This document shows positions 6,439 through 34,500 of a stretch of DNA of 64,000 nucleotides, one piece after another. The stretch is from positions 1 to 64,000 of the IMG/VR virus record IMGVR_UViG_3300048924_000605. One strand, given 5' to 3'. Every line of letters begins with the position of its first letter. The first letter of the stretch is position 1. The translations under genes were made by a program, and so were the position numbers. Below the pieces are notes generated by a model. That model ran no database searches. It saw nothing but the letters and a program-made list of their open reading frames with translations, and was not told the origin of the DNA. Source of the stretch: a virus.

Positions 6439-6837
6439 GTGAAGTGGACTTTTGCCTTCCTGACTGCAGCAGCCGTTACCAGTTGCTCCGCGGCTGCGCC
6501 GCCGGCGACTTGTGCCGCTTATGACCAAGCGACTCAGATTAACGTGGCCTTCCGCTTTCCCGCAGAGAATGCCGGTCGGCCGGGCGGCTTCGGAGCAGTC
6601 AGCAGTTCGCCAACTTCAATGGTTCCGATCAATCCGAAGCAACTGGCGGGCAAGACCGCCCGAGCGGTGTCCTCGGTGAAGGAACCTTGCTGCAGCTTGG
6701 AGTTGATTGTAGAGGACTGCCAGAGGGCCTACATCCAATCGCCGGGCGGCGCCTATTCGATCAAAGCCGCGTCGGATAACGGCTACGAGATGTTCCCGAT
6801 CACGGGACCAAGGCCCCCCGCTCGGCCGCGCCAGTAG
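6439..6837 (+). CDS. putative exported protein/lipoprotein
   Basis: GGAG RBS, GTG start, signal-like KWTFAFLTAAAVTSC; several Cys. Confidence 0.45.
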   Translation: MKWTFAFLTAAAVTSCSAAAPPATCAAYDQATQINVAFRFPAENAGRPGGFGAVSSSPTSMVPINPKQLAGKTARAVSSVKEPCCSLELIVEDCQRAYIQSPGGAYSIKAASDNGYEMFPITGPRPPARPRQ

Positions 6838-7576
6838 CTTCGCCTCCGCTTGCATCGAGCGGAACTGTCGGTCGGCCATGCAAGTAGCCTTGCTGTAGGT
6901 AGATACCGAGCTTCAGCAAGGCCTCGGCGTCGTCTGCCGTCTCTACGCCTTCGGCAACGACCTCCGCCCCCAGATCCAGCGCCATCGCTGCAACGTGCGC
7001 AACAACCTTCCGACGCACCCGTTGCGCCGAGTCCGAGAGTCCCTGCACCAATCGCATGTCGAGCTTCACCACGTCGGGGACGTAAGCGGCTAGGACCGAG
7101 AGGCTGGCGTAGCCCGCGCCTAAATCATCCAGCGCGGTCCGAAAACCCGCCGCCCGCAGCAACTTGTGGCTCGCCACCCATGCGGGTACATCAATCGGTA
7201 GGTGTTCGGGGAACTCCAAGATGACTCGACCTGGTGACAGTCCGGCGCGCGCTGCCAATTCGGTCAAGTAGCTGAGCGCGGCTTCGTTACCGAGCAACGT
7301 GCTGCCCAAGTTGATACAGAGAAAGCCGGGAAGCCGCGATCGCGCCGCCGCCGCCATTGCCTCCCAAACAAGCCGCCGCTCCATCCGACTAAGTTCGTGG
7401 CCCTTCAGTCCCTCGAAGACTTCGGCAGCGCTGATCCCACCAGGACGGCGTGCCAGAGCCTCATAGGCGTAAACGCTGCCGCGCGAGAGATCCAAGATCG
7501 GCTGGAACGCTATACGGACCTCGCCCCCGGCCTCAACCGGACGCGCCGCGCGCGACAGCTCCCCTAAGTCGGCCAT
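6800..7576 (-). CDS. stand-alone EAL-domain c-di-GMP phosphodiesterase
   Basis: AFQPI, YEALAR, INL, LEFPE, DDLGAGYASL, KLD, AEGVE and QQG motifs; GGAGG RBS before ATG 7576. Confidence 0.9.
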   Translation of the reverse strand: MADLGELSRAARPVEAGGEVRIAFQPILDLSRGSVYAYEALARRPGGISAAEVFEGLKGHELSRMERRLVWEAMAAAARSRLPGFLCINLGSTLLGNEAALSYLTELAARAGLSPGRVILEFPEHLPIDVPAWVASHKLLRAAGFRTALDDLGAGYASLSVLAAYVPDVVKLDMRLVQGLSDSAQRVRRKVVAHVAAMALDLGAEVVAEGVETADDAEALLKLGIYLQQGYLHGRPTVPLDASGGEATGAAERGALVP

Positions 7577-7700
7577 GCCCGCCTCCGCCATCCGTGTGGA
7601 TCTCAGGCCGGTCCACCGGCCAAATCGGCCGTGCGGCCGCCCGGCCGAGCGTAGCAGGATTTTAATCCGCCGCCAGGGACGGAGCAGCCCCTTGCCCCGG

Positions 7701-8030
7701 CTATTCGTCCAGCCAGCCGGCGTACGGCCGCAAGTCCTCGATATAGGGAAATAGATCGCCAACCTCACATTCAAGCGCAATCGCCAGCTTGACGAGGGTG
7801 ATGATTGATGCTGCCGACTTCCCATTCTCGATCAGCCCGACGTAGGCCCGATCCATAGGAACGCTGTACGCCAGGTGGTCCTGGCTATATCCCCGCTGCT
7901 TACGAACCTCGCGGATTCGAGCGCCCACCGCCTGCAACAACTCGGACGGCGGGGATTGCCGCTTCTTGGAAGGCGGCTTCGTCTTCGCGCGAGGAAGGCG
8001 GCGGGTAGCGGCGGCAGTTTTCTTGGACAT
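7701..8030 (-). CDS. XRE-family (controller-protein-like) HTH regulator
   Basis: GARIREVRKQRGYSQDHLA..DRAYVGLIENG..LVKLAIALEC. Confidence 0.9.
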   Translation of the reverse strand: MSKKTAAATRRLPRAKTKPPSKKRQSPPSELLQAVGARIREVRKQRGYSQDHLAYSVPMDRAYVGLIENGKSAASIITLVKLAIALECEVGDLFPYIEDLRPYAGWLDE

Positions 8031-8060
8031 TTCCAACGTTCTTGGAATTTTCCAAGAACG
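8021..8060. promoter_or_regulatory. tandem palindromic operator TCTTGGA-N4-TCCAAGA at the XRE start
   Basis: Perfect copy at 8040-8057 (extends to an 11-bp inverted repeat, 8037-8060) plus a degenerate copy at 8021-8038 covering the ATG. Confidence 0.7.
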
Positions 8061-8435
8061 GTATGCCCAGACGGGCGGTTCCACCTCAGGTGTCCGCCCG
8101 TCTGGCGTCCCCCATCACTGGCTTAAGCAATTGATCTGTATTGACTTTGACCCGACACAATGGCCACATGCGGCCCGAGACGGCCACTCGATTCTCCCGA
8201 ATATGACTCTCTTCCGGCATCTAGGTCGGCTAGCTCAGGTTACGAACAGAGGACTCGATCTCCCTGTAAGAAGTCGCCGATTCTCGTGTCAGAAAAATCT
8301 GATAGCCCACATCGGACGAACGGTAGCAGCCGGAGACATCGAGCGGGAAACGCCTTGTTTTGAAGCACGACTAAAACTCTGAACGAACTCCAGGCTCGCC
8401 TTCTATCGAGACTTTGGAGTGGAAGCTCTGGATTT

Positions 8436-8453
8436 CCTTGGATTTTTCGCAGA
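8436..8453. promoter_or_regulatory. degenerate copy of the same operator
   Basis: CCTTGGATTTTTCGCAGA, 15/18 match to the copy at 34483, 75 nt upstream of the response regulator. Confidence 0.45.
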
Positions 8454-8528
8454 GACAACGACACCGAGTTGAGGCAGCCTAGCGGTCCGGCACGGAAGCC
8501 GAGGTGTCCAAGAACACAGGGAACCTGC

Positions 8529-9164
8529 ATGAAGTATGTCTTGGCAGAAGACTTCCCATCGGTCGTCTTCTTTTTGAAGCACCTCTTGGTCGAGAGGATT
8601 GGCGTCGACCCGAAGGACATCGAATCGGTAGACAACAGCGATGACCTGCTCACCCTAGTTGGAAAAGAAGAATACAGAAACGCATTCCTGCTCCTCGACC
8701 TGTCGATGCCCGGACGGTTCCGGCGACTGGTGCTGGTCAAAGAGTTGCTCCGCCGCAACAACTCGCTCAAGATCGTCGTTTACACCGCATACCACAGCGC
8801 ACACCTCGCAAAGGACTTGCTGCTACATGGCGTCGCCGCATACGTAACGAAGGGCAGTGTCCCGGATGTTCTCATCAACGCAGTCCGCGCGGGTCTTTCC
8901 GGGGAGAAATTCACCGACCCGAGTTTGAACCTGATCGCTGCTGCATTGTCGGATTGGTACGAACTCACCCCCAGCGAAATGGAGGTGACCATCGCCATCT
9001 GCAAGCAGCTTTCAAACAAAACAATCGCCAAGCTACACGGGGTCGGCCCGAAGACCGTTTCTGCTCACAAGCGAAGCGCGATGTCCAAGCTCGCGATCAG
9101 CCGGGAGACACACCTCACCGCCTACCTGTATGAGCAAGGGCTGGACTACTTGCTTGACGAATAG
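8529..9164 (+). CDS. orphan NarL/LuxR-type response regulator (REC + HTH)
   Basis: VLAED, LLLDLSMPG, VYT, YVTK and C-terminal LTPSEMEV..SNKTIA..KTVSAHKRSAMSKL. Confidence 0.88.
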   Translation: MKYVLAEDFPSVVFFLKHLLVERIGVDPKDIESVDNSDDLLTLVGKEEYRNAFLLLDLSMPGRFRRLVLVKELLRRNNSLKIVVYTAYHSAHLAKDLLLHGVAAYVTKGSVPDVLINAVRAGLSGEKFTDPSLNLIAAALSDWYELTPSEMEVTIAICKQLSNKTIAKLHGVGPKTVSAHKRSAMSKLAISRETHLTAYLYEQGLDYLLDE

Positions 9165-9176
9165 GAGCTACGACAA

Positions 9177-9503
9177 ATGGAAGGCAGTGCCCACAACGTA
9201 ATCCCCCTTCGCCGAAATGAAATTTCCTCGGAGGATGTGGACGCCATCGAGATGATCATGCGTGTCCATGTCGGTGAGGACGTGTCCTTGCGCAACATGG
9301 AAATCACCGACGAGCCCCTCGAGTCGATTTCCAAACGAATGGCCGCTGAGCCCGGAGCCAGTCAGAGTGAATCGCATGGCTGGCGATTTCCGGTCATGCA
9401 ATGGCGATTTCGCCCGAGCAACGGGACCCGCTTGGTGTTGACCGTCATCGACGAAGGGCGCAGGCGGTTCTTCAAACATCGCGTCGAATCAGTTTCAAGC
9501 TGA
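9177..9503 (+). CDS. hypothetical protein
   Basis: AGGAG RBS; lies in the operon between the regulator and virB5. Confidence 0.55.
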   Translation: MEGSAHNVIPLRRNEISSEDVDAIEMIMRVHVGEDVSLRNMEITDEPLESISKRMAAEPGASQSESHGWRFPVMQWRFRPSNGTRLVLTVIDEGRRRFFKHRVESVSS

Positions 9504-9545
9504 CCATACCGCGCTGCCCAACCTCACAAATGGAAGTAGAGTGGC

Positions 9546-10277
9546 ATGAACATTCTCAATCGCCGCCGGACCTCAGCCCTTCTTCTGACTGCAGTTGCTC
9601 TCGTCGCCTCGGGCATGCAGCACGCCTGGGCCATCGATATCGTCTTCGACCCCAAGAACACCGCAGAGAGCATGAAGCAGTTGGAGGAGATGAAGCGCTC
9701 CTACGACAAGCTCAACGATCAGTACAAGGAATTGCAGAAGCAGTACAACCAGCAATTGGTGAACGGCGTGGCTTACTTCGGCCGCGATGGAGTGAAGGTC
9801 AAGCTGGACCGCCGCCCGCTTGGGTTCGGGGTCGCCGAGCGATGCACCGACATCAAGAATCCGGGACCTAAGCAGAAGGAACTGTGCGCGGCGCTAGTTC
9901 AGACTCAAAACCGCCAGTTCAACGCGATGGTGGATCTGCAGGAGTTGACCGAAGCGCGCGAGGGCGAACTGAAGGACATCTACAAGGAACGCTCGGAGAT
10001 CAGACCCGACGAAGCGGGTCGGTTGCAGGCCAACAGCAATCGGCTGCTCTCTTTCCAGGCCCGCACCCAGGTCGATCTGCAAAACGCGCAGAACCTGCTG
10101 GAGGCCTATGGCGGGCAAGTCCGCGTGCTCGAGTTGGAGCACTCGAAAGCCGCGCAAGCCGTCATCGATGGCGAACACACCGGCAGCAAGCTCGACCTGA
10201 AGCGGCTTGGGCAGGGCGGAATGCGGGCCGTCGCGCTGAAGACCGCGTTCGAAATTGCGAAACGCCGCGATCGCTGA
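9546..10277 (+). CDS. virB5: VirB5-like T4SS minor pilin
   Basis: Signal peptide, VFDPKN followed by coiled coil (TrbJ/VirB5 pattern), Cys pair; directly precedes virB6. Confidence 0.7.
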   Translation: MNILNRRRTSALLLTAVALVASGMQHAWAIDIVFDPKNTAESMKQLEEMKRSYDKLNDQYKELQKQYNQQLVNGVAYFGRDGVKVKLDRRPLGFGVAERCTDIKNPGPKQKELCAALVQTQNRQFNAMVDLQELTEAREGELKDIYKERSEIRPDEAGRLQANSNRLLSFQARTQVDLQNAQNLLEAYGGQVRVLELEHSKAAQAVIDGEHTGSKLDLKRLGQGGMRAVALKTAFEIAKRRDR

Positions 10278-10316
10278 CCATCAGGCGCTCGGCACCTCTA
10301 TCCAACGGACTTCCCC

Positions 10317-11426
10317 ATGCTCGACCTCTTCGCCGGAACCACTGCTGATCTGCAAAGCGTCCTACGGACTGTCATTCCAGACGGCGTCGACAGCCTCGGA
10401 TTCTTCGCCCTCTTCAAAGACTTCCTCGATGGCGAGATCGCCGAGTACTCGCGCAACCTGCTCCGCCGGGTCGGAACGCTGTCCGCATTTGCCATTACGC
10501 CGCTGGTGACCTTATGGATCATCTACCAGGGCTTTTTGCGGGTTACGGGCCGATCCCAAGAGTCGATGGTGGCCCTGCAGACAGACGCCGCTCGACTAGT
10601 ACTTATCGTCGCAGTTGCGGGTGTCTCGGCGGGCTTTCAGCCCACCCTGTACAAGGGCATGACCGATGGCATGAGCCAAGTCATCAACTACTCCATCAGT
10701 GGAAACGACGAGACCAGCGTCTACGACGATATAGACCAGGCGCTTGCGCTGACGCAACTCGCCATGAGCAGTATCGATCTGCTCGACGTCGGCGAAAACC
10801 AGGCGGCGCTCAAGAAGCGCGACCAAGCGAGCCTCCTGGCCGGTCTCGGTGTCGGCGACCCCGCGGTGGTCGGGGGATGCATGTTGATCTTGAACAAGTT
10901 CGTAATCGCCATGCTCTTGGGCGTCGGTCCGTTCTTCATCCTGTGCCTGATCTTCAAGCAAACCGACGGCCTCTTTAAAGGATGGCTCAACTCCCTGATC
11001 GGATCGCTGATGGCGATGGCCTTCCTGAGCGTGGCGGTGACTCTCGCGATGGACGTGACCCTTGCGCTCGCCGGTGCCTTCTGGGCCACGGAAGGGTTGT
11101 CGAAGCTCCTCGGGATGGGCACAGCGTCGGATGGAATCAACAGTGTCGTGCAAATGCAAGGCGTGCTGGGCTTGGTCTTGTCGACACTGATCATGGGCGC
11201 GCCGCCCGCGGCAGCGATGCTGTTCAGAGGCCTGCTGGCCAACTTCAACCCGTACTCCGTCATGGCCGGTCCCAACGCTGCCTCCAGCGGTCGGACCGGA
11301 TCGGCGCCGATGCCAGGTCAAACACCGTATTCCGGCGCCGCGCCTCAAAGCGCACAACCCCCCATCGACCACACTCGTATCGCGGGCCAGGCCGCCAGCC
11401 GGCCGCGTCCCGACTCCGCAGGCTAA
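10317..11426 (+). CDS. virB6: VirB6/TrbL-family T4SS inner-membrane protein
   Basis: Multi-TM; TLWIIYQG..VTGRSQESM, GPFFILCLIFKQT..LFKGWL, PPAAAMLFRG. Confidence 0.85.
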   Translation: MLDLFAGTTADLQSVLRTVIPDGVDSLGFFALFKDFLDGEIAEYSRNLLRRVGTLSAFAITPLVTLWIIYQGFLRVTGRSQESMVALQTDAARLVLIVAVAGVSAGFQPTLYKGMTDGMSQVINYSISGNDETSVYDDIDQALALTQLAMSSIDLLDVGENQAALKKRDQASLLAGLGVGDPAVVGGCMLILNKFVIAMLLGVGPFFILCLIFKQTDGLFKGWLNSLIGSLMAMAFLSVAVTLAMDVTLALAGAFWATEGLSKLLGMGTASDGINSVVQMQGVLGLVLSTLIMGAPPAAAMLFRGLLANFNPYSVMAGPNAASSGRTGSAPMPGQTPYSGAAPQSAQPPIDHTRIAGQAASRPRPDSAG

Positions 11427-11440
11427 CGCAAGGAATGCCT

Positions 11441-11935
11441 ATGACTCCCAGACTCCTCTTCTGCGCCCTCGGCGCCCTGTCGTTGAGCTTCGCGGGACTC
11501 GCACGCGCGGAGGGCGACTGCCCCTCGGGCTTCTTCCGGTATTCGAATCCGGGCCAGCCGGGCCATTGTGTCCCCATGCCAGCGACCGCGGAACGACAGC
11601 CTGACCGCTGGCAGACCCGATGGGGCGCGATCGCCATCGACCCCACCGCGTCGCGCGGCGGCGCCGGGTTCGTGGTCGGGGAAGCCAGCAAACGTGCCGC
11701 CGAGCGACGGGCGCTTTCGAAGTGCAAGGAAACCGGCGGCGGCCCGGAGTGCGCGGTCACCATCTCGTTCAAGAACCAGTGCGTCGCCACGGCCTGGGGC
11801 AGCAATTACACCCAATCCATGAGCGCCCCGACTCAAGACGAGGCGACACGACTGGCGATGGATGATTGTCGCCAACACGACCCTGCCTGCGAAGTTTTCT
11901 ACGAGGCTTGCAGCTACCCGGAGCAAGTGCGGTAG
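11441..11935 (+). CDS. DUF4189 periplasmic protein
   Basis: Signal peptide, EGDCPSG, WGAIA, paired Cys pattern (C..GG..C..FKNQC..C..C..C). Confidence 0.8.
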   Translation: MTPRLLFCALGALSLSFAGLARAEGDCPSGFFRYSNPGQPGHCVPMPATAERQPDRWQTRWGAIAIDPTASRGGAGFVVGEASKRAAERRALSKCKETGGGPECAVTISFKNQCVATAWGSNYTQSMSAPTQDEATRLAMDDCRQHDPACEVFYEACSYPEQVR

Positions 11936-12014
11936 CGGCGCGGCCGCTCCTCCAACCAGTTCCCACAACCCGACCACAGCCACACTGCTCCTCCGGAGCG
12001 GTCAGGAGGGCTTT

Positions 12015-12662
12015 GTGTCCCAATTCTTACTACCGGCCATGCAAAGGATGCTGCCAACTTGGCTCTGCCGGTTTTTTACACGGGGTCGCCGCACTCCATA
12101 CGGCGCCCTCAACTATGAGACAAAGCTTCTAGCCGCGCGTGCGCTCAGCCTCACGTGGGGAGCCAAGTTGCCTCGCTTCGATACTAGCCCAGTGAAGCTC
12201 GGGCAAGCCGCTCGGCCGGTGATCCACAAGCACCTCGCGAGCACCCTGAGCCATCTGGATCGCAAGACGGTGGCGACGCACCGATTCGGCCTGACCTTAC
12301 TGATCCACGATCTACTCGCCCGCGAACTCCAGATCCCGCTGCTTCTAACCGCGGGGTTCGTCTACCAGCAAGGCGAGCGCCTCAACTACACACCCGTGGA
12401 GCAGATCGAGAAGCTTCTGCATAGCAAATCGGCCGTCGGGACCGATTTTCCACTTCACATCTGGCTGACCCTGCCCAGCCACGAGATCGTCGATGCGACC
12501 TTCTGGGCAGCGTTTCCAGCGCTTACGGGAAGCGAAGAGCGCGCGAGGCGCGGCGTCATGTTGGACCCGGCCGACTGGGCTGCTCGGAGCTACCACCCGC
12601 AATGGGTCGGCGAAGGAGTCGTCCGGCGCCTGGGGCTCTTGAAGGAGAACGAAGGATGGTGA
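12015..12662 (+). CDS. hypothetical protein
   Basis: AGGAGG RBS before GTG; HIWL..EIVDAT resembles the His/Asp strands of transglutaminase-like folds, without an obvious Cys. Confidence 0.55.
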   Translation: MSQFLLPAMQRMLPTWLCRFFTRGRRTPYGALNYETKLLAARALSLTWGAKLPRFDTSPVKLGQAARPVIHKHLASTLSHLDRKTVATHRFGLTLLIHDLLARELQIPLLLTAGFVYQQGERLNYTPVEQIEKLLHSKSAVGTDFPLHIWLTLPSHEIVDATFWAAFPALTGSEERARRGVMLDPADWAARSYHPQWVGEGVVRRLGLLKENEGW

Positions 12663-12985
12663 CCCCAGAAGTGATTCGATACGACGTCGTATACCGAGGC
12701 GTCCTCGACTGGCATGTGCATGTCGAAGGCGTGGATGATCCGGCCGCTTTTGCTACGCGTGGAGCCTGCATCATCGCGGCCAATGTCCGGGCGAAGGCTC
12801 GGCATACCGACACTGGCGCCACGACCGAAGTCTGGGCACCGGGCCCGGGCGCCGTGCCGGAACTGCAAATCCGCTACCTCAAGCCTGAGGCCTTTTCCGA
12901 GCTCTTGCTGACGGCGAAGCCGAATTTTGAACTGATCGGCGCCAGCTACGCCTATGGCCCGCTGTTCACGCGCTTGGGAAATTGA
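12656..12985 (+). CDS. small hypothetical protein (DUF2188-like)
   Basis: AAGGAG RBS; W-x-V..F-x-T..A pattern. Confidence 0.45.
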   Translation: MVTPEVIRYDVVYRGVLDWHVHVEGVDDPAAFATRGACIIAANVRAKARHTDTGATTEVWAPGPGAVPELQIRYLKPEAFSELLLTAKPNFELIGASYAYGPLFTRLGN

Positions 12986-12991
12986 CCAAGC

Positions 12992-13225
12992 ATGCCAATC
13001 ATCACCCGCAAGCCCTGCCAGGGCATTTTCATCGGCCACGAAATCGGAGTGCGCGTGTTCCGTGTGCGGAACGGCCAGGTGCGCTTCGGACTGACCGCCC
13101 CGCGTGACGTGCTGATCCTCCGCTCCGAGCTTCTGCAAGGCCCCCAGCGAGCGGGGATCCCGTGGCGCACGTCACCCGGAAAGAAGGCTGCTCGCCGGCT
13201 CCCCCCTGACTCGGTAGAGCGCTGA
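12992..13225 (+). CDS. csrA: divergent CsrA/RsmA-family RNA-binding protein
   Basis: MPIITRK..IFIGHEIGVRV..GQVRFGLTAPRDVLILRSEL aligns with CsrA, including the Arg44 equivalent. Confidence 0.8.
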   Translation: MPIITRKPCQGIFIGHEIGVRVFRVRNGQVRFGLTAPRDVLILRSELLQGPQRAGIPWRTSPGKKAARRLPPDSVER

Positions 13226-13533
13226 TGGCGGTCGCGGTGGCGCCCGCCGGCAATGGGGCCGGCGGGCCGCGCCACATTCAGGCTTCAGGGCCTCCGATCT
13301 CAGGCCGCGAAACGCTTGTCATGCAACTTGAGCCCGGTGATGATGGCCACCGCGGCCACATGGATCTTGTGGCTCGGTCTAGCACTGACACGGAAGCGTC
13401 CTACTGTGCATCTCGGCCTAATACGCGCCCCTGCCGCCCGCATCCGGGACGCTTCGTCGTGCCCGATCATTTCTCCTCCCTAGGCACAGGCGCCCTGCCT
13501 GTGCTGCATCACCGTGCTAAAAGGAGTTGTCTC

Positions 13534-19139: not shown

Positions 19140-19199
19140 TGAAAAGTGAGGCGATCTAGCTTGCTAGTCCGCTTTAGTCACGCCAGACTGTAGATCGTA

Positions 19200-19227
19200 G
19201 GGAGGAGCATTTGCTCCTCCCTTTTTT
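19200..19227 (+). terminator. rho-independent terminator
   Basis: GGGAGGAGCA-TT-TGCTCCTCCC followed by a T run, between convergent genes. Confidence 0.85.
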
Positions 19228-19229
19228 GT

Positions 19230-22329: not shown

Positions 22330-22390
22330 ACTCGTTTCGCCTCACGCCTCGTTAACAAAAAAAGCAAGACTTCGAATACACGAAACGCAA

Positions 22391-22417
22391 TGAATCCGTC
22401 TCGCGATTCACCTCGTA
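22391..22417 (+). promoter_or_regulatory. putative ECF-sigma promoter of the fasciclin moron
   Basis: TGAATCC-N16-CGTA about 60 nt upstream of the ATG. Confidence 0.45.
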
Positions 22418-22477
22418 AGGATGAGCGCAACACCCTCAGCGCTCTTGCGCTACGTACTGTCGTCCTGGAGGATTTCT

Positions 22478-23035: not shown

Positions 23036-23085
23036 GTCTGTCTGCGCGCGCCGTGCTGCACGGCGCGCGCTTGTTATCCCATTCG

Positions 23086-25601: not shown

Positions 25602-25615
25602 GCAATGTCCGCTCG

Positions 25616-26551
25616 TTACTCGGTAATGCGATAGGCATAACCGTAGACGCCGCTGTTGGGCGTGCCCACGGGGCCGTTCTTGCGATGAACGGGGAACACT
25701 TTCCACCGATCGCTACCCAGCACCAGTTCCTCGCCGGGGGCGTAGCTGTCCAGGCGGATGAAGCGCAGGTCGGGCGGGTGGCCGATGTCGGTGTTCAGAT
25801 CGCCACCGCGCGGAACCGCGCACCACAGCGGCTGGCCGGGCGCGCGGCCGGTCAAGGCGCTGTGCCCGACCTCTTTCAGCAGATTGATCGGCGCGCCTCG
25901 GCGACGCCAGCCACAGTACAGCGCGCGCGTATCGCCGCCGGCGTCCGAGACCCCATGCCAGCGCGGCGCGACGCCATCGAAATCGGCACGCACGCGCGTC
26001 GTCGCCGACATGTAGTTCGCCCAATAATCATCGAATGCCACGGCATGACGAACATCGTCCGGACTGTTGATGTAGTTGGGATCGTAGTACCACTGGCTGC
26101 CATAGACGTACTGGCCCGTGTTCACCGCGCCTGCGGTCACCAGCTTTCCCGTGCCGAAGTGCTTGAACGTGCCGGCCTGAGTTTCCAGCACGATGTGCAG
26201 GTACGGCTGCGGCACCGTTCGACTGAAGAAGTGAACCGCGCTGTACGGTCCTTGGACGTAGTTCGCCCAGACCTGCGCGCTGGCGTCGGCCTGGAGATCG
26301 GGGTTGGCGTTCGCCGCGTAGCCCGTGTGCCCGAACGCGCCCACGAACGGCGGCGGCCGAGAACTATCGCCACCGCTCAGTTCGGTCAGAAACGTCGCAT
26401 ACAGAGAACCCGCATGCACGCTCAGCGCTTTGCCGACCCGAACGGTTCGGTCGCGCCAGCCGTCCACCGCCCAGCCGTTGCCTTGGGCGAACACTCGCAG
26501 CTTTTCGAGTAGTTCGTTGGGGTCGTTCGCCGCGGACGTCGCGTAGGCCAT
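25616..26551 (-). CDS. virion structural (tail) protein
   Basis: MAYATSAANDPNELL..NGW; C-terminal WKVFP..SGVYGYAY. Confidence 0.75.
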   Translation of the reverse strand: MAYATSAANDPNELLEKLRVFAQGNGWAVDGWRDRTVRVGKALSVHAGSLYATFLTELSGGDSSRPPPFVGAFGHTGYAANANPDLQADASAQVWANYVQGPYSAVHFFSRTVPQPYLHIVLETQAGTFKHFGTGKLVTAGAVNTGQYVYGSQWYYDPNYINSPDDVRHAVAFDDYWANYMSATTRVRADFDGVAPRWHGVSDAGGDTRALYCGWRRRGAPINLLKEVGHSALTGRAPGQPLWCAVPRGGDLNTDIGHPPDLRFIRLDSYAPGEELVLGSDRWKVFPVHRKNGPVGTPNSGVYGYAYRITE

Positions 26552-28128
26552 CAGTCGAGCTTCAAAGCGAAGTAGTTGTCGGGGGAGATGCGGAAGGCGT
26601 TCTGGAATGTCATCCAGACCGCACCGTCGTGGTCGATCAGGGACTCGGAGGCGGTACTGAAGCCCGTCGTCCATCCACAACCATCGAACTCGCCCAGCGT
26701 GTGCCGCGGCGACGTGTTGCCCAGGATGAGTGGCAGCACCGGCGAGGTGCCGTCCAGGTTCTCGCGGAGATTGGCCCGATCGCCCCAGGTCGACATCGCG
26801 CTCGGATACACCTTGCCGGACGTCTCGGTGTCGCCGTTATCGCTTGATCCGGACGCGAATCGATTGGCATGCACCCGCCAGACGTTATCTGGATAGTTCA
26901 CAGCTAGCCCGTAGCGCCCAGGATCGAAGAAGCAGCGGAAGTTGGCGTCGGTCGCGTCCGGTGTCAGTGTTTCCGACGACCCGCATGCGCCGATCGCGAG
27001 CGGGTACTCGTGGATCGACGGCGGCTCGTAGGCGTTGATGAAGCCCAGGTAAGCGCTCAGGTACACCGTGCCCACGCGCGCCACGATCACCACGCGCTGG
27101 CCATTGATCGCCAGCCAGTAGGCGAAGGGACCGTTGCGCAGCGGCAGTCCGCGCGCACCGCTCGCGTTCGTCTGCGTCCGTACGCTACGCAGCGGGTTGT
27201 ACGACCGGAACCCATACCAATTCAGGTTGTAGGCCGCGCGCGCGGCGTCCTCGTACAACTCGGCGCCGACGAAGATTGCTTTCCGCCCATCCAGGCCCGG
27301 CGCCTGCACGATCCACTGCGCCCGGTCTTCGAGCTCGAAGTCGGCGTTGAGATCGGTGTGGATACTGACATCGTTCACGTCGAGCGGATCGGCGCCGGCC
27401 GTGGCGGTGATCAGCACGCGCCAGAAGCGTCCGGCGGCAGGCGCGCCACTGATCGGGTAGGTGCGGCGCATGCGCGCGGTCGGCCAGACCTGGCCGGCCC
27501 ACGCCTGCACCCGCGTCCAGACCGAACCGTCGTCCGAGCGTTGCAGTTCGAAGGCGGCCGGCCCGCGCGCGCCGCTATCGCCGATGCCGAGCGTGATCGC
27601 CTTGATCGAAGTGGGGCCGATCATCTCGACGCTGGCGTGCGCCGGCAGATCGGCGACCGGCCGGCTGCTCCAGGTGTCCGTGCGGTTGTCGAAGACCGAA
27701 GCCGGATTGGTCAGGTTCGTTGTGCGGAAGCCTGCATTGCGGCAGCCGTAGCGGCGAACCAGCGTCCAGGCCGGCGAGGTGTTGAGGGCGAAGCGGTCGC
27801 CGGCCACGAACGGAATCGATCCGGAATTGATGCGAAACCGCACCCGATCGGACTCGAAGGGCTGCCCCACCCGGGCGATGCCCAGATCGCCCGCAAGCGC
27901 GCCGACCACCTGGAACCGATCCGCATCGAGCGCCGTAAGGGTGAAGCCCTCGGCGACGCTGGCACCGCCGCCGCGGTACCCGCCAGCAGCGCCGTCCGGT
28001 CCGGTCAGCGTGCCGTTGCCCGCACCCGCATACAGCAAGCCCCAGGCGTGGCCCTCGGTACAGAGCGCGGATTCCAGGCGGTTGAGGAAATCGTAGTAGT
28101 CGGATGCGACGTCGGCTCGTACGGTCAT
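26551..28128 (-). CDS. virion structural (tail) protein with an internal discoidin/F5-8-like domain
   Basis: GPAAFELQRSDDGSVWT..RFWRVLIT insert; position downstream of the tape measure gene. Confidence 0.7.
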   Translation of the reverse strand: MTVRADVASDYYDFLNRLESALCTEGHAWGLLYAGAGNGTLTGPDGAAGGYRGGGASVAEGFTLTALDADRFQVVGALAGDLGIARVGQPFESDRVRFRINSGSIPFVAGDRFALNTSPAWTLVRRYGCRNAGFRTTNLTNPASVFDNRTDTWSSRPVADLPAHASVEMIGPTSIKAITLGIGDSGARGPAAFELQRSDDGSVWTRVQAWAGQVWPTARMRRTYPISGAPAAGRFWRVLITATAGADPLDVNDVSIHTDLNADFELEDRAQWIVQAPGLDGRKAIFVGAELYEDAARAAYNLNWYGFRSYNPLRSVRTQTNASGARGLPLRNGPFAYWLAINGQRVVIVARVGTVYLSAYLGFINAYEPPSIHEYPLAIGACGSSETLTPDATDANFRCFFDPGRYGLAVNYPDNVWRVHANRFASGSSDNGDTETSGKVYPSAMSTWGDRANLRENLDGTSPVLPLILGNTSPRHTLGEFDGCGWTTGFSTASESLIDHDGAVWMTFQNAFRISPDNYFALKLD

Positions 28129-28189
28129 AACGAATAAAAGCAAGAACCCCCGGCTTGGCCGGGCGTCCGAGAGATTAATGACTTGGACT

Positions 28190-28855
28190 CTACGCGGATG
28201 TTTCGTCGCGCTTCGCTGCTGCTCGTGTGGCACGTTTGGCGGATGTAATCGCCACCACCGGATCAGAACTTGCCGGCGGATATCGCTCGTCGAACTTCTC
28301 TGTGAGCCAGTGAGCATGTCTCAAGCTATCGGACAACCACAACGATGCGGGCGTAGCAAACCACATAACGATCTGAAATAGGACAATGGCCACCTGCATA
28401 TCTTGGGAGAAGTGAATCCAGCGATGACCGATTAGCGCGATCCAGGGGGCGAACAGCAGTACGAAAGAACCAATCCCCAGGATATTCGCCCGCGCCTCAA
28501 ACGAAAGTGGACCCGATGCATCCCAAGGAACGATCCGACCCTCACGGTAGCGAACGTAGCGACGTGCTCGTTTGAAACTATTGATGAAGGCCAACGGGTC
28601 GTCCCGCTCTCGTGCGATCTTCAAAACCCGCGGGTGAAGAATGAAGCCGAAGGCGGTCGCGGAAGACATCTGGTCGCCGAGAGCCTCCTTCTCGACCTTC
28701 TTATACAGCCTGGCCGTTGCTTGAAGATTTAGTCGCATTCGTCCCGAACGGTAGCGAAGCCAAGCAAAGATCGCCGCTACTGGCGCGATGATGATGAGTG
28801 CGACGGGCAGGAGTTCCGGAACTTTCTGGATCAGCGATGTCAGCAGCGGATTCAT
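28190..28855 (-). CDS. hypothetical membrane protein, moron
   Basis: Three hydrophobic segments, lower GC, inserted after the tape measure gene. Confidence 0.6.
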   Translation of the reverse strand: MNPLLTSLIQKVPELLPVALIIIAPVAAIFAWLRYRSGRMRLNLQATARLYKKVEKEALGDQMSSATAFGFILHPRVLKIARERDDPLAFINSFKRARRYVRYREGRIVPWDASGPLSFEARANILGIGSFVLLFAPWIALIGHRWIHFSQDMQVAIVLFQIVMWFATPASLWLSDSLRHAHWLTEKFDERYPPASSDPVVAITSAKRATRAAAKRDETSA

Positions 28856-28987
28856 AAATTGGGCCCGAAGGAGTGAGGCGCCCATCCCAGCAAAGTTCCA
28901 TCTCACGGGCTGAGACACCGGCGGCTCCCAAGCAGCTGGTGCTTTTTCTGGACGCCAACATAAAAGCGCGCCGGTTTACGGCGTTCG

Positions 28988-31900
28988 TTATCCAAGATCC
29001 TGACGGACCGTAGGGGCGTTGGCCCGAATCGTAGACAAAATTATCTGCCGGCCCGCCTGAGTGCCCATTACGTTCACGATCTCGCGCGGGTCCAGATACA
29101 GGACATTGGTGATCTGCGAAGAGCGCGGTTCGGGCGCACGGGCGGCGGACCGCTCTGAGACCGGCCGACGCGCGACGGTGGGCGCGGTCGGAGCCGGTGA
29201 TACGAAGCCCCCACTCGCATACCCACGCAGTCCATCCAATGCGGCCATGCCGACGCGGTTGAACCGCTCCAAGAACGATCGCGCGCCCGGCTGACGCACG
29301 ACCTCCCGGCGATTGACGAACTCGCCGCGGTGGACGATGCCGGCAGGGGCGTACTTCGGGCCGATCCCGGTAAAGCCGCCCGTCGCGAAGAACCCGCTCG
29401 CGCCCTTAGTCGCGTTGGCGGCCGCCAACGTGGCCGCGGCGGCCTGCATCGCGGAGGCCGCCTTGAGCACTACGCCGCCGGCCACGCCCAGCGCGACCGA
29501 CGCACCCGTGATCGGGGTGGCGTAGGCGGCGCCGGCCGCTGCCGCTTGGACCGGGTCCGGCTGAGCAAGATCGGGCGTTTTGCCCCCGCCCGCGAACTTG
29601 CCTACGACCGACATCAGCTTGGCCGTCGCGAAGGCAGCCAGTTGCTGCGACGCCAACTGGGCCAAGGACCGAGCCATGTCCTGCACCAATCCCGTCAGCG
29701 CCTGCCGCAGCGTCAACGTTCCGGTGGCCAGTCCTTCCAGCGCATTGCCCAGGCCCGTCTCAAAGCCATTGGTCAGCGTCAACACCAATTCGTTCGACTG
29801 CGTCTTGAGCGCGGTGACCTGTGCTGTCAAATCCTTGACCCGCTCGATCGCTTCGGGCGAGCCGGTCTTGGCGGCCAGCGCGTCCATCTTCGGCAACAGC
29901 TGGTCGACTTCGGCCGCGGTACGACCATGCAGATCCAGCAGCTCACGGCGCGCGTCGATCTCGGTCAACAGACCCGCTTGCTGGCGGGTCTGGATCGACT
30001 GCTCCTGGCGCGTCTGATCACCAAACACCCGATCGACTTGCGCCTGCAGATCGTCCAGCTGAGCGCGGGCCACCTCGGTGTCGATACTGAGGTTCAGCTT
30101 CAGCCAGTCGCCCGTCCGCCCGCGTTGCAGCAGTTCGGCCAGCGAATCGCGATGCTCCAGCAGCAGTTCACGTTGCCGGGCCGCTGCGTTGTCGCCTCGG
30201 TTACGCAGCAGATTGGCTTCGGCCTCAGCGACGGTCTGATTGAGCTCGTCGTCGGTCTTTCGTTCCTTCTTCTCCTCGCGCTTTGCCGCCGTCTGCTCTT
30301 GTTTAGCGAGTCGTTCGGCCGCTTTCTGCGCCCGATCGGCTTCTCGCCGGGCCTTCGCTTGAGCGCGGTCCTCCGTGGTCGCCGCTTTCGCGGCCTCTCG
30401 CTCACGGACCTGCTCATCGATCAGCTTGCGAGTTGCCTCGGTGAGCTGAGTCGCATCCTTGACCCCGGCCGCCTTGGCGGCCTGATACTCCAACGCGGCA
30501 CGGAGGCCCTTCTCCCGCTCGATTCGCTCAACCTTGAGTTTCTCGTTCTGATCCGTCAGGGATTTGGCGAAGTCGGCAGCATCCTTGCTGGCCTGCTGCG
30601 TGGTGCGCCCGCCGGTCGCCTGAGCGCTTCGAAGTTCCGCCAGGGATTGCTGTACCGACTTGAACTCTGATTTGGTACGACCGAGTTGGGACTGGACACG
30701 CTGCAGCTCGGCGTCAAGGTCTTCGCCCATCAACCAACGACCGGCGCTCTGACCGGCGTTGATATGGAATCCGCCGCCGCCGCGCTGAAGGCCTTGAAGA
30801 TCCTCAAGCTCTTCTTGCAGCTGATCGCGCTGGGCAATCAGGCGCTTGCCGGCGTCGACACCCGAATCGATATCCTGCTGCTTGCGAAATTGCTGGGCGG
30901 CCTTGATCGTGGCCTCGAACTCCAGTTTCGCAGCTTTGGCGTTCGCACTCGCGTTTGCAAAGGCACTGGCTAGGAGCGTAATGCCGGTGATGGCAAGGCC
31001 GAGGGGACCGCCCATCAGGGACAGCACCGACGAGAGCGCTCGAATCGCGACAGCCTTCGCGCCGACCGCCGCAGTCGCGGCTTGGGTCGCCGCAGCGGTA
31101 CGGGCCTGCGCGGCCGCCAACGCGGCCTCGGCCGCGGTCGCTCGCGCACTGCTCGCCCCGCCGAGCGCCAGCGCGCGGGCACGGCTGAGCTCTGCCTGGG
31201 CGGCGGCTTCGGCGGCTCGGGCTTGCGCCAGTTCCTCCTGCGCCAGCCGGCGGGTTTCGCGCATGCTTTGGACCTTGGCGGCACCTGCCAGGGTCAGCGT
31301 CGAAAGAAGCCGGCCCAACGCAGCGACGGCAACCACGCCTACGGCGCTCGCCAGACCGTCGAAGTTTTGCGACAACCCCTGGATCGCCTGAGCTACCGTC
31401 GAGGATACGCCGCTGGCTCGATCCTGCTGACCGATGAAGCGGGTGAATGCATTGTCCAGTTGCGTCAAGCTGCGCTCGATCGTCAGCGGCAGTTGGCCGA
31501 ACTCGGATGCGATCTTCTTGGCCTGCTCCCCTGAGAACGCCTTACGCAGCTGCTCGCTGGTGAGCTTGCCTTCCTCTGCCAGCTTACGCAGTTGGCCGAC
31601 CGTAACGCCCATGCTGTCGGCCAACGCCTTCATCAGGCGCGGTGCGGCGTCGTTGACGGAGTTGAACTCGTCGCCCCGCAGCGTGCCGGAGGCGAACGCT
31701 TGGCTCAGCTGAAGGATGGTCGAGGCCGCTTCAGCGCCGGTCGCACCAGAGACCGCCAGGGCCTTGTTGATGGTCTCGGTCAGGCCCAGTACGTCACGCT
31801 GGGACGTGCCCTGCTCGCGCAGGGCACTGCTCAAGCGCCCAAACAGGGTCGCGGTTGCGTCCAGCGACGTGGACGTGCGCTGCGCGATCGCGAAGACCGC

Positions 31901-32242
31901 GGCTTCGGCCTGGTTGAAGCTGGCCTGCGACGTCGTCGCGAGCTTGATCTTGGCCGATAAGTTTGCGTAGCTGTCGGCGGCCTTGACGAGCCGCCCTACG
32001 ACATCGCCCAGTCCTTGCAATCCAAGGAAAGCAACCAACTGGTTCTTCGTCTGCGACACCTGCGAACTAATCGCCGCTACGCTACCGCGCACCTGATCGA
32101 ACTGCTTCCTGCTCCGAGCGCCAGCTTGTTCGGCATCGGACGCGAAACTTCGAACCCGCGTTCCGGATTGTTGGAGCGCCTGGTTGAGTTGGGCCGCATT
32201 CGCGCGCACCAACAATGTAATTGTGGTGTCGCGATTGGCCAT
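28988..32242 (-). CDS. tail tape measure protein
   Basis: 1084 aa, Ala-rich; QLSQAFASGTLRGDEFNSV tape-measure domain; FATGGFTG..KY.PAGIVHRGEFV. Confidence 0.93.
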   Translation of the reverse strand: MANRDTTITLLVRANAAQLNQALQQSGTRVRSFASDAEQAGARSRKQFDQVRGSVAAISSQVSQTKNQLVAFLGLQGLGDVVGRLVKAADSYANLSAKIKLATTSQASFNQAEAAVFAIAQRTSTSLDATATLFGRLSSALREQGTSQRDVLGLTETINKALAVSGATGAEAASTILQLSQAFASGTLRGDEFNSVNDAAPRLMKALADSMGVTVGQLRKLAEEGKLTSEQLRKAFSGEQAKKIASEFGQLPLTIERSLTQLDNAFTRFIGQQDRASGVSSTVAQAIQGLSQNFDGLASAVGVVAVAALGRLLSTLTLAGAAKVQSMRETRRLAQEELAQARAAEAAAQAELSRARALALGGASSARATAAEAALAAAQARTAAATQAATAAVGAKAVAIRALSSVLSLMGGPLGLAITGITLLASAFANASANAKAAKLEFEATIKAAQQFRKQQDIDSGVDAGKRLIAQRDQLQEELEDLQGLQRGGGGFHINAGQSAGRWLMGEDLDAELQRVQSQLGRTKSEFKSVQQSLAELRSAQATGGRTTQQASKDAADFAKSLTDQNEKLKVERIEREKGLRAALEYQAAKAAGVKDATQLTEATRKLIDEQVREREAAKAATTEDRAQAKARREADRAQKAAERLAKQEQTAAKREEKKERKTDDELNQTVAEAEANLLRNRGDNAAARQRELLLEHRDSLAELLQRGRTGDWLKLNLSIDTEVARAQLDDLQAQVDRVFGDQTRQEQSIQTRQQAGLLTEIDARRELLDLHGRTAAEVDQLLPKMDALAAKTGSPEAIERVKDLTAQVTALKTQSNELVLTLTNGFETGLGNALEGLATGTLTLRQALTGLVQDMARSLAQLASQQLAAFATAKLMSVVGKFAGGGKTPDLAQPDPVQAAAAGAAYATPITGASVALGVAGGVVLKAASAMQAAAATLAAANATKGASGFFATGGFTGIGPKYAPAGIVHRGEFVNRREVVRQPGARSFLERFNRVGMAALDGLRGYASGGFVSPAPTAPTVARRPVSERSAARAPEPRSSQITNVLYLDPREIVNVMGTQAGRQIILSTIRANAPTVRQDLG

Positions 32243-32680
32243 TGAGGATTACGCGTTCGCAGCGATGCGCCACCGCGATGACGGCGCCTTTCAATAGTTC
32301 AAGAAGGCGCCGCAAGCGGCAGGGAGATGCCTCCGCCAGTTCGGCGGAGGACTGCCGGACTACCTAGCTAGCAAGGCTAAGTTCGGCGAAGGTATGCAAT
32401 TGCAAGCGGACTATCTGGACAGCACGACAGTACCGGACGCTTTCCCATTCATTTCGGGCACAAACGTCGGGGGCTTGCAGCCAACGCAAGTCAAAACCAG
32501 AAAAACGAGGGTGAGAACCGCTGCGCGAGCTTTCATCTGGTAGATCTCCATTAGGCGATAGCGCGGCGCCTGCCTCCGACGGAGGCATGCCGCGCTTCAA
32601 TGTAGCTCGCCGTCCCTAAGCGCCCACTCGGTGAAAGGAGGCTGGAGATTGACCGAACTCACAGTTCATACGGGCGCAAC

Positions 32681-34354
32681 TCAGATTCCCTTAACGCCCT
32701 CCATGCCGGAGCGGTAACCGGTCACCCGCGCTCGACCTTCTTCCTTGCTTCGGTACAGTGCCGCGTCAGCCCGGCGCAGGAGTTGCTCAGGCGAATCATC
32801 TTCTCGCAGATCAGCAACGCCCATCGATAGGCTAAGCGGCACGGTATGCCCTTCAACCGAGACAGGGTGTCGCGTTACCGTTTCTCGCAGGGCGCTGGCG
32901 AGCACCTCAGCCTTTCCTTGGGATAGTCCCAACAGGACAAGCAACATTTCGTCGCCTCCGTATCTGGCCACAATATGCTCATCGGGAAGCCAGTTACGGA
33001 TCCTTAGCGCAACGACCCGCAATGCTTCATCGCCCGCCTGATGCCCGTACTGGTCGTTGATCGACTTGAAATAGTCGATGTCGATAAACACCACGGACAG
33101 ATCCGTTCCAGCCTGATGCGCTCTCTCGATGTTCCGACGGAGCATGTCGCCTACGGCGTCTCGCGTGATTACCCCGGTCAGCTTGTCGTAGGTCCAACGT
33201 CGCTGCGCGCTGTCGCGATCAATGCGTACCTGCTCAAGCTTTGCGGTAAGCCCGAGCATCAGCGCGAGACCGCTGAAAGCCAAACCAGCGGGGAACATCG
33301 TCGGCACCCAATCGGGCATGGTCCACCAGTTTTGGTAGCCACCGACCATTACAACGAGTGTCGCCATCACAGGCGCCCAAGCCAGAAGCAGGAACACGGC
33401 TTCACGCTGTCGTCGGGCCAGTGCGCGAGCAATGCCTACGGCAATGGCCGCAAAGGCTGCGAGCATTACGGTATTCCCGAAGTAGGCGCTAAACGTGGTC
33501 ACATGAATCAGCGACACCAGGAGCAGGCCGCCCAGCAACACACTACAAACGTTCAGCAGGACAGCAATCCGCGGCTGTCGTGCTTCCAACTGCAGGAAGA
33601 ACACAAGGAACCGGATGCCCGTCAATACTGCCGCAGTATTGATGACGATGTTGGTTCTTCGGTCGAGAGCAAACTCCGCAAGCGCTGGGACGACGCCAAT
33701 CTCCCCTCCCTCAATCATGAGATTTGCGAGCTGAGCCAGCATCGTCAAGCCGAGATAGGCGTAGCCATGTTCGCGCATGGCAGCGAAATAGCCGAAGGAC
33801 AGCATCGCCACCAAAAATAGAGCGACGAGAACCGACGTTCGGTACTGCGTGTAGGCGATGTCCGCCTTATGCACGGAGGCCAGAGGCTCAATCGCCAAAT
33901 GCGATGGAATCAGATTGGGCGAAAACACCTGGACATAGAGGACGTCGCCAGAGCGAAGCGCCCCACCGAGAGACACCGAAAGAGCCCGGGCAGGCCGAGC
34001 CGCGTCCGAATCGTCGCCAAGAGCAGTCCGATGTATCGCGCGGGTAGCGCCGGGGAGCCAAACCTCGACTTCCTTCTGATTCGGGGGCGTAATCACCAAC
34101 TGCGGATTGGAATCGGCAGCCGGCGCCGCCTTCAAGACAATGCGCCACCACTGCGGCTCCTTCCGCGTCATGGCTATGTCTACTCCGGCCACAGCATTGA
34201 ATTCCTGGTCCCGAGTTCCTGCCACGATCTCGGCTGCGGGCAACTTCCCCGGCGTATCCAGCCGCTGGAGCGTGAATCCGACAGCCGCTGCATGATCGCA
34301 CCAAGCGCACAATAGGAGCAGAAGGACTAGGCAACGCGGCAATTTCGGCGACAT
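32681..34354 (-). CDS. 7TMR-DISM sensor diguanylate cyclase, moron
   Basis: Signal peptide, periplasmic domain, about 7 TM segments, DKLTG, DIDYFKSINDQYGHQAGD, RYGGDEM, ADAALYRSK; GGAAGGAG RBS. Confidence 0.92.
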   Translation of the reverse strand: MSPKLPRCLVLLLLLCAWCDHAAAVGFTLQRLDTPGKLPAAEIVAGTRDQEFNAVAGVDIAMTRKEPQWWRIVLKAAPAADSNPQLVITPPNQKEVEVWLPGATRAIHRTALGDDSDAARPARALSVSLGGALRSGDVLYVQVFSPNLIPSHLAIEPLASVHKADIAYTQYRTSVLVALFLVAMLSFGYFAAMREHGYAYLGLTMLAQLANLMIEGGEIGVVPALAEFALDRRTNIVINTAAVLTGIRFLVFFLQLEARQPRIAVLLNVCSVLLGGLLLVSLIHVTTFSAYFGNTVMLAAFAAIAVGIARALARRQREAVFLLLAWAPVMATLVVMVGGYQNWWTMPDWVPTMFPAGLAFSGLALMLGLTAKLEQVRIDRDSAQRRWTYDKLTGVITRDAVGDMLRRNIERAHQAGTDLSVVFIDIDYFKSINDQYGHQAGDEALRVVALRIRNWLPDEHIVARYGGDEMLLVLLGLSQGKAEVLASALRETVTRHPVSVEGHTVPLSLSMGVADLREDDSPEQLLRRADAALYRSKEEGRARVTGYRSGMEGVKGI

Positions 34355-34482
34355 CGACTAGGACTCCTTCCCGGTGACGGCGGAGGATAGCGGCCCCTTC
34401 GGCTGAGTCGTGGTGCGCCGGGTCACGGTTCCCGGTCCATCCTCGGGAATTTCCCGCCCGCCCAGGTCCGATAGCGTCGTTT

Positions 34483-34500
34483 TCTTGGATTTTTCCAAGA
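34483..34500. promoter_or_regulatory. palindromic operator TCTTGGA-N4-TCCAAGA upstream of the cyclase
   Basis: 17/18 identical to 8040-8057; about 130 nt upstream of the GGDEF start. Confidence 0.65.

Follow-up and report, generated by a model that had tools for sequence, protein, structure and literature searches.

A rare palindrome common to a regulator cassette, a prophage diguanylate cyclase gene and an effector operon in Lysobacter

Introduction

Can one short palindrome tie together genes that lie 26 kb apart on a prophage-bearing stretch of DNA, and which protein would read it? The question was raised by a stretch of 64,000 nucleotides (nt), called here the window, which makes up the first 64 kb of a virus-type record of 80,692 bp (IMG/VR IMGVR_UViG_3300048924_000605). 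A first-pass annotation, made from the letters alone, had noticed the same inverted repeat at the start of a gene for an XRE-type regulator (XRE), before the operon of a response regulator (RR), and upstream of a GGDEF diguanylate cyclase gene within the prophage. It had proposed that the XRE protein coordinates this cyclase, an EAL phosphodiesterase and the neighbouring cargo genes as a lifestyle switch; GGDEF and EAL domains make and degrade cyclic diguanosine monophosphate (c-di-GMP). The XRE protein of the window shares 96% identity with one from Lysobacter enzymogenes, and we compared the locus with genomes of Lysobacter and its family, related prophages and viral contigs. In what follows, G numbers denote genomes and L numbers loci or contigs.

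Results

Copies of the palindrome and their distribution

The motif TCTTGGA-N4-TCCAAGA is indeed present in two exact copies, at 8040-8057 and 34483-34500, where 100 shuffles gave an expectation of 0.00, and both proved longer than first described, with 8-bp arms (TTCTTGGA/TCCAAGAA) that make each site 20 bp long. We refer to them as O1 and P (Table 1); P lies 13 nt past the stop codon of the o-spanin gene and 128 nt before the ATG of the GGDEF gene. O1 is kept in G025 and G026, and occurs as a variant with C in place of G in G027 and in the L. enzymogenes genome Lj46 (G001). The tandem degenerate copy (O2) overlaps the XRE start as reported, with ATG 8030 inside its spacer, and the homologous site of G016 is a perfect TTCTTGGA-TATG-TCCAAGAA over the XRE ATG. 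A copy before the RR operon (O3) was also found, not directly before the TTG at 8469, but 76 nt before ATG 8529, which is the likely start; its counterpart in Lj46 is a perfect CTTCGA-TTTT-TCGAAG at the same position and distance. A fifth copy lies beyond the window, between a divergent operon with g74826 and a Tle1-like lipase gene (the effector operon) and the gene g75879, and homologues of this copy are present in G025, G026, Lj46 and G022. In general form the palindrome reads (T/A)TCTT(G/C)GA-W4-TC(C/G)AAGA(A/T).

A genome-wide scan with the pattern CTTSSAWWWWTSSAAG gave matches in 4 of the 25 Lysobacter species genomes, with 2-5 copies each and none in reversed controls, so that the palindrome is not the common host site that the first-pass annotation had named as a possible refutation. 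The matches sit at the XRE start, before the RR gene, at the lysis/GGDEF junction of related prophages, or before homologues of g74826; for the single exception, a non-symmetric match in G017, the surrounding 1.5 kb on either side hold no gene of the window. A degenerate pattern matched 29 of 401 genomes of the family, mostly as single non-symmetric combinations, and symmetric copies of the G or C type were otherwise limited to G001 and G017. The matches in one small genome, G281, were set aside as chance, match and reversed-control counts both being high there. Within the 80.7-kb contig, a RcsB-type pattern with an A/T spacer had four matches where 0.04 were expected, each of them in one of these control regions. 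Scanning viral contigs with the 20-mer returned 41 matches, mostly by chance in low-GC phages, of which L018 and L039 are clearly relevant; the same scan with the C variant gave, among the matches listed, chance matches only, and a plasmid search with the XRE protein gave no match. We read the palindrome as a selected cis-element common to the regulator cassette, the GGDEF moron of the prophage and the effector operon.

The site at the lysis/GGDEF junction

The cyclase gene is a moron, flanked by the lysis genes on one side and the tape measure gene on the other, and the palindrome follows its presence. Nine of the ten GGDEF-bearing prophages seen (window, G025, G028, G022, both Lj46 copies, G017, L321, L333 and L327) carry it; L327 lacks it and retains the proximal block only. 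In four related prophages without the GGDEF gene, the o-spanin gene joins the tape measure gene directly and there is no palindrome, and four further related prophages carry other inserts at this place, also with no palindrome. When seven moron upstream regions were aligned (GGDEF alleles 40-71% identical to that of the window), only three islands were conserved: the palindrome itself, GGGAACCGTGAC about 47 nt past it, and the hexamer TATnCT, which precedes the ATG by about 35 nt. On these comparisons we assign the 34.5-kb copy to the GGDEF moron and not to the lysis operon.

The GGGAACCGTGAC block and the TATnCT hexamer are kept upstream of all GGDEF morons, even the dyad-less one of L327. 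Within this moron block, GTGA-N6-GCAC resembles a half-conserved site of the CRP/Clp type; Clp is c-di-GMP-responsive in this bacterial group. Scans for consensus sigma-70 promoters found none at the 8-kb and 34.5-kb loci, and our reading of TATnCT as a -10 element, and of a TTAACA hexamer described below as a -35 element, is a guess made by hand.

Arm variants across strains and the response regulator as candidate reader

Lj46, whose XRE protein is 84% identical to that of the window, provides a natural variant of the operator. Its XRE and RR sites and both its prophage sites differ from those of the window by the same one base per arm (TTCTTCGA; TTGGA vs TTCGA): the XRE-side site reads TCTTCGA-AATT-TGGAAGA, with one arm imperfect, both prophages have CTTCGA-W4-TCGAAG at the lysis/GGDEF junction, and the Ser codon after the XRE ATG follows the arm base (TCC vs TCG). 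G-type (TTGGA) arms were found at every site in the window, G025 and G026, and at both sites of G016, the XRE and RR proteins of which are 63% and 40% identical to those of the window.

The RR gene, divergent from XRE, encodes an orphan protein whose best solved relative is RcsB (phmmer E 6e-12). Read from the sequence in an alignment with RcsB, its REC domain has the acidic pocket E7/D8, D57 in LLLDLSMPG, T86 and K108, and in its DNA-binding domain gpKTVSAHKRSAMSKL aligns with siKTISSQKKSAMMKL of RcsB, with a Lys at the K180 position. RcsB binds the box TN(G/A)GAN4TC(T/C)NA, in which K180 alone hydrogen-bonds bases, reading the (A/G)GA triplet (PMC7913699). Both the inner core of the dyad, TTGGA-N4-TCCAA, and a second box in the XRE-RR intergenic region, TCAGA-AAAA-TCTGA, fit the RcsB box; the C-arm variant of Lj46 breaks its R position. 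The helix core KTVSAHK occurs in the RRs of the window, G025, G026 and G016, all four with TTCTTGGA arms, and is identical in G016 even though that RR is so distant overall. An NTVSAHK helix goes with TTCTTCGA arms in Lj46 and G027. RRs with other helices (DTISQHK and KTVSSHK in G021, DSISRHK in G022) are without this dyad and have TAGGA/TCAGA-W4 boxes instead. We regard this co-variation of operator and RR between strains as suggestive.

No comparable signal was found in the XRE protein, in which no residue from helix 1 onward co-varies with the arm base or separates G-arm from C-arm elements. The G027 protein has a helix 3 identical to that of the window, yet its sites are C-type, and the G021 protein is as close to that of the window as is the G016 protein, yet G021, whose RR helix differs, has no palindrome. 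XRE and RR adjoin in all 13 Lysobacter loci examined, so presence and absence cannot separate them there. Outside these loci, XRE homologues without an RR (11 metagenome loci with 58-72% identity and a nearly identical recognition helix, plus G254) have tandem CAGAGG boxes and no palindrome. With moderate confidence, we suggest that the palindrome is most likely read by the orphan RcsB-like RR, encoded divergently from XRE and acting as a dimer.

Several observations weigh against the RR. The prophage and effector sites of G022 are G-type, yet the regulators of this genome are distant ones and all its RRs have Asp where RcsB has K180. In G017 a perfect site persists without an intact XRE or this RR. 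The co-variation spans about three independent lineages, and all C-type prophage sites are confined to one GGDEF allele group, so that descent explains part of it; the effector-side site of Lj46 keeps G arms, although the RR and XRE sites there have C arms. In addition, a regulator with tandem sites over its own start is the textbook picture of XRE autoregulation; a TGGA-N4-TCCA palindrome lies next to the XRE gene that G009 and G022 have in common, though the neighbouring RR is of a differing type; and the TCAGA-W4-TCTGA box is constant while RR helices vary, which fits one protein per box type.

Other readings of the palindrome

The first-pass annotation had named the XRE protein as the binder. 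As a controller-like regulator, it would autoregulate through O1 and O2 and, at the same operator, repress the GGDEF moron as well as the RR and effector operons. Among solved structures in the PDB, XRE comes closest to the controllers of restriction-modification (R-M) systems C.AhdI (1.3e-10), C.BclI and C.Esp1396I, and R-M controllers bind tandem dyads upstream of their own gene together with a related operator at a second promoter (PMC2691842). The palindrome stands on or beside the XRE start in every Lysobacter locus, and homologues with Arg at the position of C.Esp1396I R46 have CAGAGG boxes only, while those with Ser or Ile have the palindrome; the two box types would fit two proteins. 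At prophage and effector sites of the G type, TTAACA (TTCACA in G022) lies 4 nt upstream of the dyad, or 5 nt at one of the G022 sites; it could be the -35 element of a weak promoter occluded by the dyad, which would then cover the spacer and the -10 element, as a repressor does. The dyad is, however, not a C-box (GACTnnnAGTC), and since arm variant and palindrome presence track the RR helix and no XRE residue partitions the variants, we consider XRE a possible but doubtful binder.

Both regulators, or a third element-encoded protein, might instead act on the dyads, for example as an XRE-RR complex or through a competition that sets up a two-state switch. The constant pairing of the two genes, the two related box types in one intergenic region and the C-terminal ...LDE tail that both proteins have in common (WLDE/WLEE in XRE, YLLDE in RR) are in keeping with a joint reader. 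This idea is purely conjectural, parsimony favours one reader per dyad, and we find it improbable.

Less probable still is that the dyad serves a global regulator encoded on the chromosome, or that it is a scar left by recombination or by insertion of the moron cassette. Because it is absent from 21 of the 25 Lysobacter genomes, a core host factor is not its binder. As for a scar, the dyad stands exactly at the upstream junction of the moron and the region is rearranged in G026 and G027, but the rearrangement junctions in these two genomes do not coincide with dyads, each moron has one copy, and positions relative to start codons are conserved. Finally, the first-pass annotation had asked whether the 34.5-kb copy acts only as a terminator of the lysis genes, in which case its likeness to the 8-kb site would be incidental; although site P closely follows the last lysis stop codon and can fold as a 10-bp hairpin, the stem is A/U-rich and followed by CGACGC with no U-tract, a scan of 34300-34700 called no terminator-like site, the dyad is lacking from related prophages that have this lysis cassette without the moron, and the same dyad stands before XRE, RR and g74826, where no operon ends, so that we reject a function as terminator only as scarcely credible.

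Geometry of the sites and a proposed regulon

The dyads span -28 to +10 relative to the XRE ATG, which by its geometry reads as a repressing position. At the GGDEF gene, the centre of the dyad is about 113 nt upstream of the transcription start implied by TATCCT. At g74826, the dyad lies about 330 nt before the ATG, with its centre about 47 nt upstream of a candidate promoter, TTGACG-N17-TCAATC. What was observed are the sites, their rarity, their conservation between diverged flanks, their link to the moron and the co-variation; the binder, the sign of regulation and the signal are inferred. The palindrome would be the operator of a small accessory-gene regulon on a composite Lysobacter element, made up of a cargo island and a siphovirus-type prophage, and it would act at five places: two on the XRE 5' end, one at the RR-g9177-virB5-virB6-DUF4189 operon, one at the GGDEF moron and one at the g74826/Tle1-like lipase operon. 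A phosphorylated RR dimer sitting on the XRE start would repress XRE, and the same protein bound before its own operon would be autoregulatory. Far upstream of the cyclase and effector promoters (about -80 to -115), RR would be an activator or exert remote control. Among the contig genes scanned, which were part of the total, no Pfam match to a histidine kinase was found. A paper on L. enzymogenes 'RcsB/C' concerns another regulator and gives no motif.

Only tentatively, and as a picture that in its entirety is rather unlikely, do we propose a prophage-plus-cargo element with its own RR/XRE switch, in which one operator would co-regulate a feedback-free cyclase, a kin-recognition module of the X-type type IV secretion system (X-T4SS; VirB5, VirB6 and DUF4189) and a lipase effector. 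If it holds true, lysogeny would install a signal-responsive programme that changes both the c-di-GMP level of the host and whom it kills or tolerates.

Edges of the element, the EAL gene and the linked cargo

The first-pass annotation had coupled the cyclase with the EAL phosphodiesterase as a make/break pair. The EAL gene is co-oriented with XRE and follows it in the window, G025 and G026; its start is probably ATG 7591 and not 7825. The EAL domain scores 139.6 bits, with the EAL, DDLGAGY, KLD and EGVE motifs present, and the GGDEF domain of the cyclase 138.8 bits, with the motif GGDEM and no RxxD I-site; both are plausibly catalytic. A partnership by design is doubtful. There is no dyad upstream of EAL itself, and the intact XRE gene of Lj46 is followed by a tRNA-Arg(CCG) gene, not by EAL; this tRNA gene lies beyond XRE by a few hundred bases in Lj46 (315 nt after the XRE stop) and G017. 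A second Lj46 copy has an XRE remnant, 254 nt, a 37-nt 3' fragment of tRNA-Arg and then EAL, and homology between this copy and the window extends through EAL to a point 8 nt before ATG 7591, then begins again in the 3' end of XRE. The break in homology and the tRNA-Arg fragment argue for an edge of the element just after XRE. EAL thus probably lies outside the mobile element, and was most likely brought within 110 nt of XRE in the lineage of the window.

In Lj46 and G017, tRNA-Arg(CCG) thus adjoins the XRE end of the element, and partial 3' copies of it stand at degenerate copies elsewhere in Lj46 (tRNA and fragment positions: L116:11950-12026, G001a ~76080-76116 and L084:14-90). This tRNA gene is a likely integration site.

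The cargo to the left of the prophage had been ascribed to the phage on account of the shared site. The linkage is supported, and we take synteny as the stronger argument for it: in prophages of this family, the XRE-RR-cargo block adjoins the tail end in two settings on the chromosome, one with EAL and Tle1 (window, G025, Lj46 copy a), the other with tRNA-Arg (Lj46 copy b, G017), which G027 matches only from the last tRNA bases. Control of CsrA and Rhs by the operator, also part of the earlier proposal, is doubtful, being only assumed from operon continuity.

Other arrangements were seen in related genomes. G026 (L106-L107) has its integrase/Tle1 block inverted relative to the EAL-XRE block and lacks the tail/GGDEF region, and in G027 (L103-L105) RR breaks off inside the recognition helix and runs on in frame into a tail-fibre gene. 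G021 has a homologue of g74826 adjoining an RR-g9177 pair without XRE, with a TCAGA-AAAT-TCTGA box 105 nt before its ATG. At 5.608-5.616 Mb of G025 (L090, L115), to the right of the prophage, there is a second XRE'-RR'-VirB5-VirB6-DUF4189 module (XRE' 55%, VirB5 87%), which places the prophage among repeated modules for X-T4SS tips and kin protection. DUF4189 proteins are reported to block X-T4SS fratricide by binding VirB5 (bioRxiv 10.64898/2026.05.09.723464).

Comparison with known systems

The proposed regulon belongs with the small regulons run by island-encoded regulators, a kind already known, and recalls three systems in different respects. Like RcsB, RR is a NarL/FixJ-type regulator with REC and GerE domains, a Lys at the K180 position and a candidate site that is a GA-N4-TC pseudo-palindrome, and RcsB sites too are found upstream of promoters, for activation, and over 5' ends and ATGs, as roadblocks (PMC7913699). 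RR departs from RcsB, to which it is related only distantly, in being an orphan, with no RcsC/D partner among the contig genes scanned. The arms of its predicted site, at 7-8 bp, are also much longer and stricter, and the regulon has very few members, all of them within a mobile element. The likeness to C.AhdI and C.Esp1396I lies in a small HTH_3 XRE protein with tandem dyads directly upstream of its own gene, and in the pattern of operators, which in C.Esp1396I stand at its own and at a second promoter (CR and M; PMC2691842) and here at its own and at a distant promoter. In contrast to R-M controllers, XRE has EAL and RR as neighbours, with no adjacent restriction or modification gene; besides the missing C-box, the dyads are spaced 19 bp and not about 15 bp apart, and XRE has a basic N-terminal arm of 30 amino acids (aa).

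Third, phage morons such as bor and lom of lambda are well known, as are diguanylate cyclases on integrative and conjugative elements (ICEs) of the SXT family. Like other morons, the GGDEF gene is an accessory gene with a putative control region of its own between conserved late genes, absent from close relatives, and as in the SXT-family ICEs a mobile element carries a diguanylate cyclase. Morons are usually viewed as self-contained cassettes or as being under the control of the host or the phage repressor. Unlike known morons, the upstream element of this one matches operators that belong to a regulator pair encoded in the linked cargo, at a distance of 26 kb, and an operon for an interbacterial effector on the other side of the prophage bears the same dyad. 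This match between phage cyclase and cargo regulators is kept through a one-base change in another strain. It may thus offer a cheaply testable example of a mobile element that wires second-messenger synthesis and interbacterial weapons into one regulon, as well as a natural specificity pair for RcsB-type DNA read-out (KTVSAHK with TTGGA, NTVSAHK with TTCGA). L. enzymogenes is a biocontrol bacterium, and c-di-GMP and its killing T4SS both matter for antagonism.

Gene content and further features

The coordinates of all features are collected in Table 1. Gene calls were verified for EAL, XRE/HTH_3, REC plus GerE, VirB6, DUF4189, CsrA, Rhs, the tape measure and 7TMR-DISM-GGDEF, and the VirB5-like call is weak. 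From left to right, the prophage comprises tail genes, tape measure, 7TMR-DISM-GGDEF, o-/i-spanin, endolysin, holin and tail chaperone, followed by major tail, head, portal and terminase genes. The right end of the contig has a gene for a 1450-aa Tle1-like/PG-binding protein and small genes, up to an H-NS gene.

Table 1. Operator copies and neighbouring features of the contig, in order of position
Feature	Position	Strand	Remarks
TIR gene and SRAP gene	left end of contig
EAL phosphodiesterase gene	6800-7591	-	co-oriented, 110 nt downstream of XRE stop
XRE/HTH_3 regulator	7701-8030	-	109 aa, K/R-rich N-terminal arm; Pfam
O2, imperfect copy	8020-8039		2 mismatches to the 18-mer; spacer holds XRE ATG (8030-8028, minus strand)
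O1, perfect TTCTTGGA-ATTT-TCCAAGAA	8039-8058		9-28 nt upstream of XRE ATG
GC-rich inverted repeat	8066-8105		by eye, appears to align with degenerate tandem CAGAGG boxes of XRE homologues elsewhere
Nearly invariant block of ~24 nt	8120-8146		TAAGCTATTGATCTGTATTGACTT in relatives; shared by every XRE-RR intergenic region, even where XRE is no more than 63% identical
Second box type, TCAGA-AAAA-TCTGA	8289-8302		XRE-RR intergenic; kept upstream of all RRs in this subfamily
O3, left arm TCCTTGGA intact	8435-8454		right arm degenerate, 3 mismatches; 76 nt before RR ATG
RR, orphan NarL/FixJ-type response regulator	8529-9164	+	REC + GerE helix-turn-helix, RcsB-like; Pfam
g9177, VirB5-like, VirB6, DUF4189	9177-11935	+	3' of RR; DUF4189 of the X-T4SS kin-protection factor family
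CsrA, Rhs, Rhs downstream partner gene	after DUF4189
Siphovirus-type prophage	tail genes from 19.7 kb onward	-
7TMR-DISM sensor diguanylate cyclase	32681-34354	-	moron between lysis genes and tape measure gene
Promoter-like proximal block (putative)	34384-34434	-	GGGAACCGTGAC at 34423-34434; -10-like hexamer TATCCT at 34384-34389
P, perfect TTCTTGGA-TTTT-TCCAAGAA	34482-34501		between lysis cassette and GGDEF moron
Lysis cassette	34514-35798	-	holin, endolysin, i-spanin, o-spanin
Fifth copy, ATCTTGGA-TTTT-TCCAAGGA	contig 75692-75711 (L001:11692-11711)		1 mismatch to the 18-mer; beyond the window

In the XRE-RR intergenic region, the nearly invariant block is probably the core of a divergent promoter. 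The XRE homologues from unrelated metagenomes (L150-L160, L398) have tandem direct CAGAGG(TA) repeats, which recur about every 15 nt and precede the ATG by about 35 nt; the repeat unit is GCCGCCAGAGG, found twice, or in G254 TTTTAACAGAGG, also twice. These repeats are a candidate operator or promoter of the XRE family, and the Lysobacter loci retain degenerate CAGAGG boxes upstream of O1. The acidic ...(W/Y)L(L)DE tails that end both XRE and RR (window 7704-7730, 9140-9161) are kept in homologues, as WLDE or WLEE in XRE and as YLLDE or YLMDE in RR, and could serve as a docking or degradation tag. Related to RR is a widespread RR subfamily of Xanthomonadaceae (L166, L170, L179) with MRILIADDHPII..., the helix KTVTTHKYNALRKL and the tail GLDYLL, which often has a divergent EAL gene as neighbour, and this hints at an older association of RR and EAL.

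The whole lysis cassette of this phage family sits between the tail assembly chaperone gene and the tape measure gene (window 34514-36258), an unusual placement that is also a hot spot for moron insertion.

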